From IMG/VR virus record IMGVR_UViG_2695420596_000011: 16,720 nt of DNA; one strand, written 5' to 3'. How positions within the stretch are numbered: the stretch's first letter is position 1; every line of letters starts with the position of its first letter. The stretch comes from a virus (lineage: Duplodnaviria; Heunggongvirae; Uroviricota; Caudoviricetes). Of this stretch, positions 6,925-7,794 are shown piece after piece. The notes under the pieces are model-generated. The model did no database searches. It was given only the letters and a program-made list of their open reading frames with translations, and was not told the origin of the DNA. The translations under genes and the position numbers were made by a program.

Positions 6925-7794
6925 ATGAAGAAGATTGATTACAAGTCCATACCAAAACCAATAGACTCAGCATCAGAGCGAAAAAAACACAAAAAAGAGG
7001 CTGAAAAATTAGCAAATTATATCAGTTTTATTAGAAACAATGCTCACGGCGATGGCGACAAGAAGTTGCTTTCAGATGCTCGGACCCAAGCGTTCGGTAT
7101 ACTTCGTAAGCAGATGCAATATCGTCTTCATCCTGGCTACATAATTGAAATTCGCCCTACTGAAAGACAATTGTTCTTATTAAACTCTGTCTTTGACTTT
7201 GTAAACGTAGTTGGAGATCTTATCGACAGGTCTGTAGATAAGGATCCTGATACAAATAGTTTTCTTCTAACAAATAAAGAATACTTATATGGTAAATTCG
7301 GTATAAACGGATGGCAAAAATATGTACGCTTCTTACGTGCATTCGTTGATGCGTATAAAAATTCCGACATGATTTATACATATTTGCCTGGTGGTGATAA
7401 TTGTACGCTTTCGGCAGACAATAGAATATTCATACCTGTACTTGGTCTTGGGCTGATTAATGCAGTAAATGAAAAAGATGTTATAATTGTTAAGCAGTGG
7501 CGAAAATATGAGGGATATAGATATCTGCCATGCTTTGATATATTAAAAATACAGAATAAATTCTATGTAAAAATTAAATATAAAGAAGATATTTTCTTCC
7601 TCAGAAAAAACATAGATCTTTTACAAGAACTTTCTGGTACAATAGATGTCATCTTAGGTTCTAGGTTTATAAAAGAACTGAAAGAAAGCAGGTCTTTCTC
7701 TCGTGTAGAGATAAGCGAGTCAGAGTTATGGGGTATATCAAATAATCCTGTAAACCACGCTCACCAACGAAACCCAAACAAAAAGTGGTCATAA
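6925..7794 (+). CDS. Hypothetical 289-aa protein, AT-rich, in the ral/sieB slot of the pL operon; candidate exclusion or defense gene
   Basis: Intact ORF with a GAGG Shine-Dalgarno 6 nt upstream of ATG 6925 (an alternative ATG at 6913 overlaps the N stop). AT content far higher than the flanking lambda genes. No lambda counterpart and no recognisable motifs from memory. Confidence 0.6.
   Translation: MKKIDYKSIPKPIDSASERKKHKKEAEKLANYISFIRNNAHGDGDKKLLSDARTQAFGILRKQMQYRLHPGYIIEIRPTERQLFLLNSVFDFVNVVGDLIDRSVDKDPDTNSFLLTNKEYLYGKFGINGWQKYVRFLRAFVDAYKNSDMIYTYLPGGDNCTLSADNRIFIPVLGLGLINAVNEKDVIIVKQWRKYEGYRYLPCFDILKIQNKFYVKIKYKEDIFFLRKNIDLLQELSGTIDVILGSRFIKELKESRSFSRVEISESELWGISNNPVNHAHQRNPNKKWS

Follow-up and report, generated by a model that had tools for sequence, protein, structure and literature searches.

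HK022 Nun has so far been treated as a peculiarity of its phage, in which a small arginine-rich-motif (ARM) peptide converts the antitermination site of lambda into a site of arrest. In the cryo-electron microscopy structure of the arrested elongation complex, Nun is ordered only at residues 87-109, the stretch with all known arrest determinants, and the peptide passes between the nucleic-acid scaffold and three beta-prime elements (zipper, lid and rudder), thereby blocking translocation (PMC5386594). Contacts are made by N97, H98 and H100 with RNA, template strand and beta-prime rudder, and by residues 101-109 with beta, RNA and downstream duplex; R102 forms a pair with the C-terminal carboxylate (PMC5386594). 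No important contact involves N103, and an N103A mutant resembles wild type (PMC5386594). H93 and R94 contact the upstream DNA, and R94A binds more weakly (PMC5386594). TldR proteins, which also act on transcription, are nuclease-dead, TnpB-like repressors that are recognizable as TnpBs by sequence, have adjacent guide RNAs and work by promoter occlusion (bioRxiv 10.1101/2023.11.30.569447). Here we compare with these systems a gene for a 289-residue (289-aa) protein in a 16,720-nt stretch of virus record IMGVR_UViG_2695420596_000011 (Caudoviricetes), hereafter the window, in which positions count from the first letter.

The 289-aa protein ends in the Nun arrest peptide, and is most likely a differently targeted arrest factor rather than a wholly unrecognizable defence gene. 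On balance, and with modest confidence, we read it as a modular Nun-type transcription-arrest factor whose body aims the tail at competitors, at mobile elements or at local transcription. The coding sequence divides as follows:

6925-7794, + strand: coding sequence of the 289-aa protein, stop codon at 7792-7794, with 99.9% identity to CPT_434_48 of phage 434
7750-7791, + strand: Nun arrest peptide VNHAHQRNPNKKWS, residues 276-289, identical at 14 of 14 positions to HK022 Nun 96-109 (PDB 6ALG chain N)
7723-7749, + strand: variable spacer, residues 267-275, predicted disordered, with 11-22% identity in distant homologues
7684-7722, + strand: conserved pre-tail motif ESRSFSRVEISES, residues 254-266, with the counterpart S-x-S-Y-S-R-V-D-F in a second, GKRR-tailed branch of the family
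7132-7599, + strand: core domain, residues 70-225, comprising a strand, a helical bundle and a beta-rich part, with the predicted WED/REC N-terminal-lobe fold of TnpB/Cas12 and no RuvC
6970-7119, + strand: N-terminal extension, residues 16-65, two long helices of which the first is lysine/arginine-rich, seen in the AlphaFold model and the alignment, in the Nun-tail branch only

The counterparts of Nun N97, H98, H100, R102, K106 and K107 and of the aromatic residue at 108 are all present, at the extreme C terminus. Five homologues that were retrieved through whole-protein similarity and not through the tail (P0003, P0035, P0005, P0004 and P0006, respectively 68%, 48%, 46%, 42% and 37% identical to the 289-aa protein) all end in the same peptide. 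Among homologues the tail residues V, N, H, A, H, R, K, K and W are invariant and variation is confined to Nun positions 101, 103, 104 and 105, while each invariant residue with degenerate codons is encoded by two to four different codons. Across seven genes, two of them retrieved through the tail pattern and thus with invariance built in and the other five not, 84 of 189 pairwise codon comparisons in the tail are synonymous differences. When the 68% identical homologue is excluded, identity to the remaining, distant ones is 77-85% in the tail and 40-45% in the core, compared with 11-22% in the spacer before the tail, and AlphaFold predicts residues 256-282 to be disordered. Synonymous-only change, the conservation contrast with the spacer and the predicted disorder together mark the tail as a flexible C-terminal peptide under selection. 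We also considered the tail as a mere recombination scar and rejected this, as in distant homologues its functional residues vary only synonymously. The gene as a whole has a ratio of nonsynonymous to synonymous substitution rates (dN/dS) of 0.23-0.29 between allele groups, which, together with homologues down to 37% identity, argues that it is functional and no chance open reading frame (ORF).

A profile search over 1.84 billion cluster representatives yielded 25 relatives, and a 23-sequence family alignment served as input for an AlphaFold model of the 289-aa protein. This model has a mean predicted local distance difference test (pLDDT) score of 78.7 and a predicted template-modelling score (pTM) of 0.70, with values of 84-96 for 10-residue blocks of the core and about 210 confidently folded residues; a model from three sequences had a pLDDT of 44.8 and was unusable. 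Nine of the ten top Foldseek matches are Cas12 proteins, at weak E-values, and the order of core elements (strand, helical bundle, beta-rich part) agrees with WED-REC-WED, so the predicted structure places the core with the WED-REC N-terminal lobe of the TnpB/Cas12 superfamily. The BFVD viral fold library returned only weak matches, giant-virus 'transposases' among the top ones. Comparison by hhalign with a profile of 25 genuine TnpBs was non-significant (probability 2.3%, P = 0.021) and collinear over 120 columns (family 67-186, TnpB 8-156), and comparison with a single TnpB sequence was likewise non-significant. We describe the core as TnpB-lobe-like by predicted fold, claim no sequence homology to TnpB, and do not file the protein as a TnpB. 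A RuvC lobe with its DED triad and zinc-finger/TNB insert was not found, and PF01385 and PF07282 gave no match; since only about 65 residues follow the core, as a helix and the disordered tail, there is no RuvC lobe. Residues 1-69 have an isoelectric point of 10.1.

The predicted fold raises the prospect of an RNA-guided DNA-binding protein akin to TldR or TnpB, in which a guide RNA would place the arrest peptide on a chosen locus. The lobe that the core resembles is the one contacting the guide-target duplex and the target-adjacent motif (TAM) in TnpB/Cas12, and with TldR there is precedent for TnpB derivatives in prophages that are C-terminally truncated, lack nuclease activity and control transcription. 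We nevertheless regard an RNA-guided protein as very unlikely. The RuvC lobe, which in TnpB supplies much of the binding of the guide-RNA scaffold, is absent, and no candidate guide RNA or other adjacent non-coding RNA was found beside the family genes. Room for a guide gene is also wanting: only 45 nt lie downstream of the gene in L003, the phage of the 42% identical homologue, and a family member carried in a cassette has 30 nt upstream plus an attC site. Downstream gaps are not conserved, ranging from an overlap (L105) through those 45 nt up to 259 nt. In phage 434, the downstream DNA is ordinary lambda/HK75 backbone, and Rfam finds no RNA family near the gene, its only match being the cIII thermoregulator at 8411-8469. 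Lack of guide-gene space, of conservation and of a RuvC lobe thus led us to set a guide-RNA system aside.

The window corresponds to the immunity and early-left region of phage 434 or of a prophage nearly identical to it, its DNA being 99.9% identical to the phage 434 record OL657226. On the + strand the order is cI(434) at 5208-5840, hex, pL/nutL, N at 6593-6916, the 289-aa gene, ea10 at 7983-8351, cIII, kil, gam, bet and exo. The features around the gene are:

6913-7794, + strand: full intact ORF of 293 aa, with an alternative in-frame ATG at 6913 that overlaps the N stop codon (ATGA)
6915-6918, + strand: Shine-Dalgarno GAGG, with 6-nt spacing to ATG 6925; a ribosome-binding site is annotated at the equivalent place in OL657226
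6593-6916, + strand: lambda-type N antiterminator gene, immediately upstream and sharing the pL transcript with the 289-aa gene
6907-7822, + strand: non-lambda cargo segment (916 bp) in place of sieB-orf28-ral; lambda homology breaks off at 6906 and starts again at 7823
7749-7822, + strand: right-hand mosaic joint, made up of the tail codons plus 28 nt, common to the nun 3' ends of HK75 (94%), mEpX1 and Stx1a phages
7847-7874, no strand: 9-bp inverted repeat with a 10-nt loop, GTGTATTCA at 7847-7855 and TGAATACAC at 7866-7874, in lambda backbone
7935-7964, + strand: intrinsic terminator annotated in OL657226, a hairpin at 7935-7956 plus a T-run, in lambda/HK75 backbone

The phage 434 record starts the gene at the in-frame ATG equivalent to 6925, which lies 8 nt past the N stop codon, and ea10 follows 188 nt past the gene. 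An earlier note on this DNA, made from its letters, had described an intact AT-rich ORF with its own Shine-Dalgarno, and the ATG at 6925, the GAGG at 6915-6918 and a GC content of 34.6%, against 46.2% in the rest of the window, agree with this; GC at third codon positions is 30%, and 58% in bet. The note was also right that the gene stands in place of ral and sieB, as the N-ea10 interval of lambda holds SieB, orf28 and Ral and the cargo spans 6907-7822, and its view of the gene as horizontally acquired, AT-rich cargo in an N-ea10 hotspot was correct too. The hairpin and 9-bp inverted repeat that it reported downstream are present, but neither is part of the cargo, since both lie in conserved lambda/HK75 backbone; the HK75 site homologous to the terminator is the annotated terminator after nun. 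Homologues in the same slot of other prophages, which the note had thought worth looking for, exist after N in L005, L012, L013, L089, L105 and L132.

Two other features of the window are worth recording. The ORF at 5765-6241, behind cI, is hex of 434 ('repressor protection protein'); the 434 record gives it a later start (equivalent to window position 5837) and points out that its start codon had been wrongly inferred in an earlier paper. The Rfam family Lambda_thermo, the cIII thermoregulator element, matches the window with 88.5 bits, as expected for a lambda-like cIII leader.

The position of the gene corresponds to that of nun. In 434 and in the six loci L005, L012, L013, L089, L105 and L132, it starts -4 to +22 nt after a gene for an N-type antiterminator, and the N proteins of these loci have at least four different ARMs. 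L003 and L081 have no N, and there the gene is the first after the repressor gene. In L003 the gene is directly preceded by a putL element (2930-3010) with about 93% identity to the HK75 one; this is the pL-putL-nun layout of HK022-type phages. Small Nun genes likewise follow N in mEpX1 (with an 8-nt gap) and in Stx1a phages. Overall, the 289-aa gene sits in the pL operon right after N or putL, with a terminator following, as nun does.

This arrangement would also suit a role in the lytic cycle of 434 itself, in which the tail would enter RNA polymerase in the same way but serve to limit or time N-modified transcription from pL, or to arrest the host after induction. Translation of the gene appears coupled, or nearly so, to that of N across divergent N types, downstream of pL. 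A consensus promoter scan found no + strand promoter-like site between pL and the gene, including inside N, and the first terminator-like site that the scan detected after pL lies beyond the gene. The same 8-nt coupling of the small Nun gene in mEpX1, however, means that the arrangement may reflect only the slot, and L003 has no N at all. Moreover, a weak promoter or read-through from pRM is compatible with a simple consensus scan. HK022 nun also lies downstream of pL, yet it is said (King et al. 2000) to be expressed from the prophage. We give a purely lytic role some credence, but think it improbable.

To survey the architectures that carry the tail, we searched viral contigs with a degenerate back-translation of its invariant positions, which matched more than 120 contigs. 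The ORFs were sorted by removing the last 16 residues and taking the best blastp match to the 289-aa core or the Nun core. Among 121 tail-bearing ORFs, 59 are HK022-type Nuns, 26 are small proteins with other ARMs, 32 belong to the 289-aa family (including members at 39-45% identity) and 4 are fragments cut at contig ends. The small Nun-like proteins with other ARMs, at least 26 in number (67-123 aa; viral contigs L019-L135), join diverse N-terminal arginine-rich motifs to the common end DAMH-x-VVNHAHQR-x-x-x-KKW(S), and differing motifs on one common end suggest many Nun specificities beyond lambda boxB. In a set of bacteria with one genome per species, the tail pattern occurs at six loci, all small Nun-likes, five of them in Enterobacterales (Providencia, Proteus, Photorhabdus, Shimwellia and Escherichia) and one in a metagenome-assembled genome; the same set contains no member of the 289-aa family. 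As judged from sequence, the 289-aa protein and its family are the only non-ARM tail carriers among these viral contigs and species-representative bacteria.

In the lambdoid prophage L013 (region 7733-9345), N is followed by a 290-aa Nun-tail gene (8001-8873) and, 163 nt further on, by a small ARM-type Nun-like gene (9037-9345), a tandem that argues for distinct specificities. L039 has two tail matches 300 nt apart. The pre-tail S-F-S-R-V-E-I of the 289-aa protein (window 7684-7722) resembles F-P-R-D-V-E-K-I at HK022 Nun residues 76-83, and the distance from this motif to VNHAH is 18 residues in the 289-aa family and 20 in Nun. The motif is present in the HK022, Proteus and Photorhabdus types of small Nun and is not general among small Nun-likes. 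Small Nun and the 289-aa family may thus share more than 14 residues, and, given FSRVEI in the family and FPRDVEKI in Nun at a similar distance from the tail, the small ARM-type Nuns may be cut-down derivatives that keep only the C-terminal ~35 residues.

Outside the Nun-tail branch, about 19 relatives of 210-330 aa (in the range P0010-P0034 of the alignment) have in common with it the core, at profile positions ~73-227, and also the pre-tail motif, which reads S-x-S-Y-S-R-V-D-F there and ESRSFSRVEISES in the 289-aa protein. Most of them end in another strictly conserved peptide, ...V-x-GGLPSLGKRR, which has no known counterpart. The surroundings of two of these relatives are as follows:

L008 1399-2269, L009 2494-3365, L010 526-1568 and L011 1-840: ~870-bp unit of P0028, neighbour genes all on the same strand
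L014 8001-8831 (also in L015 and L016): P0032, between brxC and pglX of a BREX operon

P0028, which has the GGLPSLGKRR tail, is an identical protein in four contigs that share only the ~870-bp unit, at 99.8-100% identity and with unrelated flanks. The edges of the unit (G|TTAGTC and GTCTAAC...GTTAGCC) resemble integron attC core sites, and a mobile unit with unrelated flanks and such edges points to the footprint of an integron cassette. In the P0032 operon, PADLOC confirmed BrxA, BrxB, BrxC and PglX, with an HSP70-like gene and a second PglX-like gene downstream. The distant branch suggests that a wider, uncharacterized family of effectors takes part in conflicts between phages and their hosts.

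A defence or abortive-infection effector that acts through its TnpB-like core, with the Nun tail as an accessory or passenger, would fit some of these observations: distant relatives keep the core and pre-tail motif with another tail, between brxC and pglX or in a mobile cassette, and the 434 tail sits on a recombination joint. We consider such an effector unlikely. The tail is the best conserved segment of Nun-tail members, with purely synonymous change at mapped functional residues, and strict conservation of the C-terminal peptide in the other branch too makes the tails the probable effectors. Moreover, none of the 23 family members has a PADLOC match, and a catalytic motif or nuclease lobe is lacking. 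A broader idea, which we put forward as speculation and hold to be more probably wrong than right, is that these are members of a hitherto undescribed family of RuvC-less TnpB-lobe proteins serving as nucleic-acid-addressed carriers of interchangeable C-terminal effector peptides, namely the Nun peptide in lambdoid phages and GGLPSLGKRR in BREX operons and integron cassettes. If true, this would link the TnpB/Cas12 world to elongation-arrest immunity.

Returning to a modular Nun-type arrest factor as the favoured reading, we envisage that the TnpB-like lobe anchors the protein on some specific nucleic acid or transcription complex, and that the flexible tail then enters a nearby RNA polymerase and arrests it there. 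This would be the logic of Nun, a targeting module plus an arrest peptide, with a different address. By analogy, we infer that the tail acts in RNA polymerase as the Nun peptide does; the TnpB-like lobe would supply the address, and the outcome would be targeted transcription arrest in phage-phage conflict or local control. The protein would probably serve to exclude rival phages or mobile elements, or to control transcription locally. Its production is expected at least in the early phase that follows induction or infection, along with N and from pL. Three observations make a part in exclusion or defence plausible: the Nun effector peptide, the nun slot, and the distant relatives in a BREX operon and an integron cassette. 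A classical boxB-binding Nun, by contrast, was rejected: the N terminus is lysine-rich with no recognizable ARM, the match to PHROG 5632 (the 'Nun-like transcription termination factor' profile) is limited to its positions 93-112, and 434 uses a lambda-type N/nut with a lambda-type boxB at 6421-6435. A body lacking a boxB-binding ARM is consistent with this N/nut system, which a boxB-binding Nun would attack.

Several observations weigh against an arrest factor of this kind. Nun H93 and R94 are not kept in the 289-aa family, and the intrinsic affinity of the protein for RNA polymerase may therefore be lower than, or different from, that of Nun. Over the tail codons, the stop codon and the 28 nt that follow, 434 matches the 3' end of HK75 nun at about 94% identity, with homology running on through the terminator, which indicates that the tail DNA of 434 itself was exchanged recently; the conserved tail DNA thus doubles as a mosaic joint. 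With no promoter of its own detected, expression from the prophage, which classical exclusion needs, is unsupported. Finally, no adjacent non-coding RNA was found for the gene, and the assignment of the TnpB lobe rests on a structure predicted from 23 sequences, with non-significant sequence support.

The resemblance of the tail to Nun is not new. OL657226 already names the gene (CPT_434_48 / UMO75312.1) a 'Nun C-terminal peptide-containing protein', and its annotators thus recorded the likeness; the earlier note, which called the gene unrecognized, contained neither this descriptive annotation nor the identity of the last 14 residues to HK022 Nun. Its finding of no P-loop, HEPN, TIR, SIR2 or nuclease signature stands, as scans of the 289-aa protein and all 23 family members with Pfam, NCBIfam and PADLOC, including the PADLOC-DB 2.0 defence-protein models, gave no meaningful match. 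That no family could be assigned no longer holds, given the Nun arrest peptide at the C terminus and the predicted TnpB/Cas12 N-terminal-lobe fold of the core. Of the checks it had proposed, structure prediction with Foldseek gave a usable model and the Cas12 matches described above, and profile searches drew a blank in Pfam and NCBIfam and a match in PHROGs. There, an unknown-function family covers the full length of the protein, and residues 270-289 match the last 20 positions of PHROG 5632. A sequence search of the PDB with the single protein returned the Nun tail as its sole match, and one with the family profile returned nothing. We found no paper on the 289-aa protein, on 434 together with Nun, or on Nun together with TnpB. 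Four points appear to be new: the TnpB-lobe fold, the finding that the tail is under selection throughout a diverged family, the correspondence of the slot to that of nun, and a sister branch in defence contexts that has another conserved tail.

The gene is present in 117 of 5426 complete E. coli genomes, 83 of which have it at no less than 80% of its length, and all E. coli matches listed are named 'hypothetical protein'. The other 34 have only partial copies, and several viral contigs have truncated alleles of 226 and 141 aa. The 96-aa E. coli protein P0008 is a chimera of the first 23 residues of Bet and residues ~217-289 of the 289-aa protein, apparently a deletion or rearrangement product.

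Among the known systems, lambda SieB and Ral occupy, like the 289-aa gene, the N-ea10 hotspot for accessory genes within the pL operon; they have no sequence or structural relationship to the 289-aa protein and work by other mechanisms. Compared with TnpB and Cas12 (ISDra2 TnpB 8H1J, Cas12n 9UDI, Cas12f and Fanzor), the protein has no RuvC or zinc-finger lobe, no Pfam OrfB_IS605 or HTH_OrfB match and no significant sequence similarity, and its gene has no omega-RNA, transposon ends or TnpA neighbour. It differs from TldR in being neither recognizable as a TnpB by sequence nor accompanied by a detectable guide RNA, and in carrying an elongation-arrest peptide in place of promoter occlusion; what the two have in common is a TnpB-related scaffold without nuclease activity, sometimes C-terminally truncated, that is prophage-borne and acts, or in the case of the 289-aa protein would act, on transcription.

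HK022 Nun, at 109 aa, is small and largely unstructured, whereas the 289-aa protein has about 210 folded residues, with a TnpB-like domain and a two-helix extension in place of the boxB-binding ARM; unlike Nun, it could not target lambda boxB without self-harm, and it does not conserve H93/R94. If the TnpB-like lobe gives the address, the protein would represent a new way of aiming elongation arrest at chosen nucleic acids, and also a novel outcome for the TnpB/Cas12 scaffold, with the nuclease lobe lost and a polymerase-jamming tail at the C terminus. It shares with Nun the C-terminal 14 residues, including H98, R102, K106, K107 and W108, a tail at the very C terminus behind a flexible linker in a modular pairing of address and arrest peptide, and the same genomic slot, after putL or N and before the same terminator. 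In this comparison the Nun arrest peptide appears as a portable module, under selection on a wholly different folded domain in a classic lambdoid phage.
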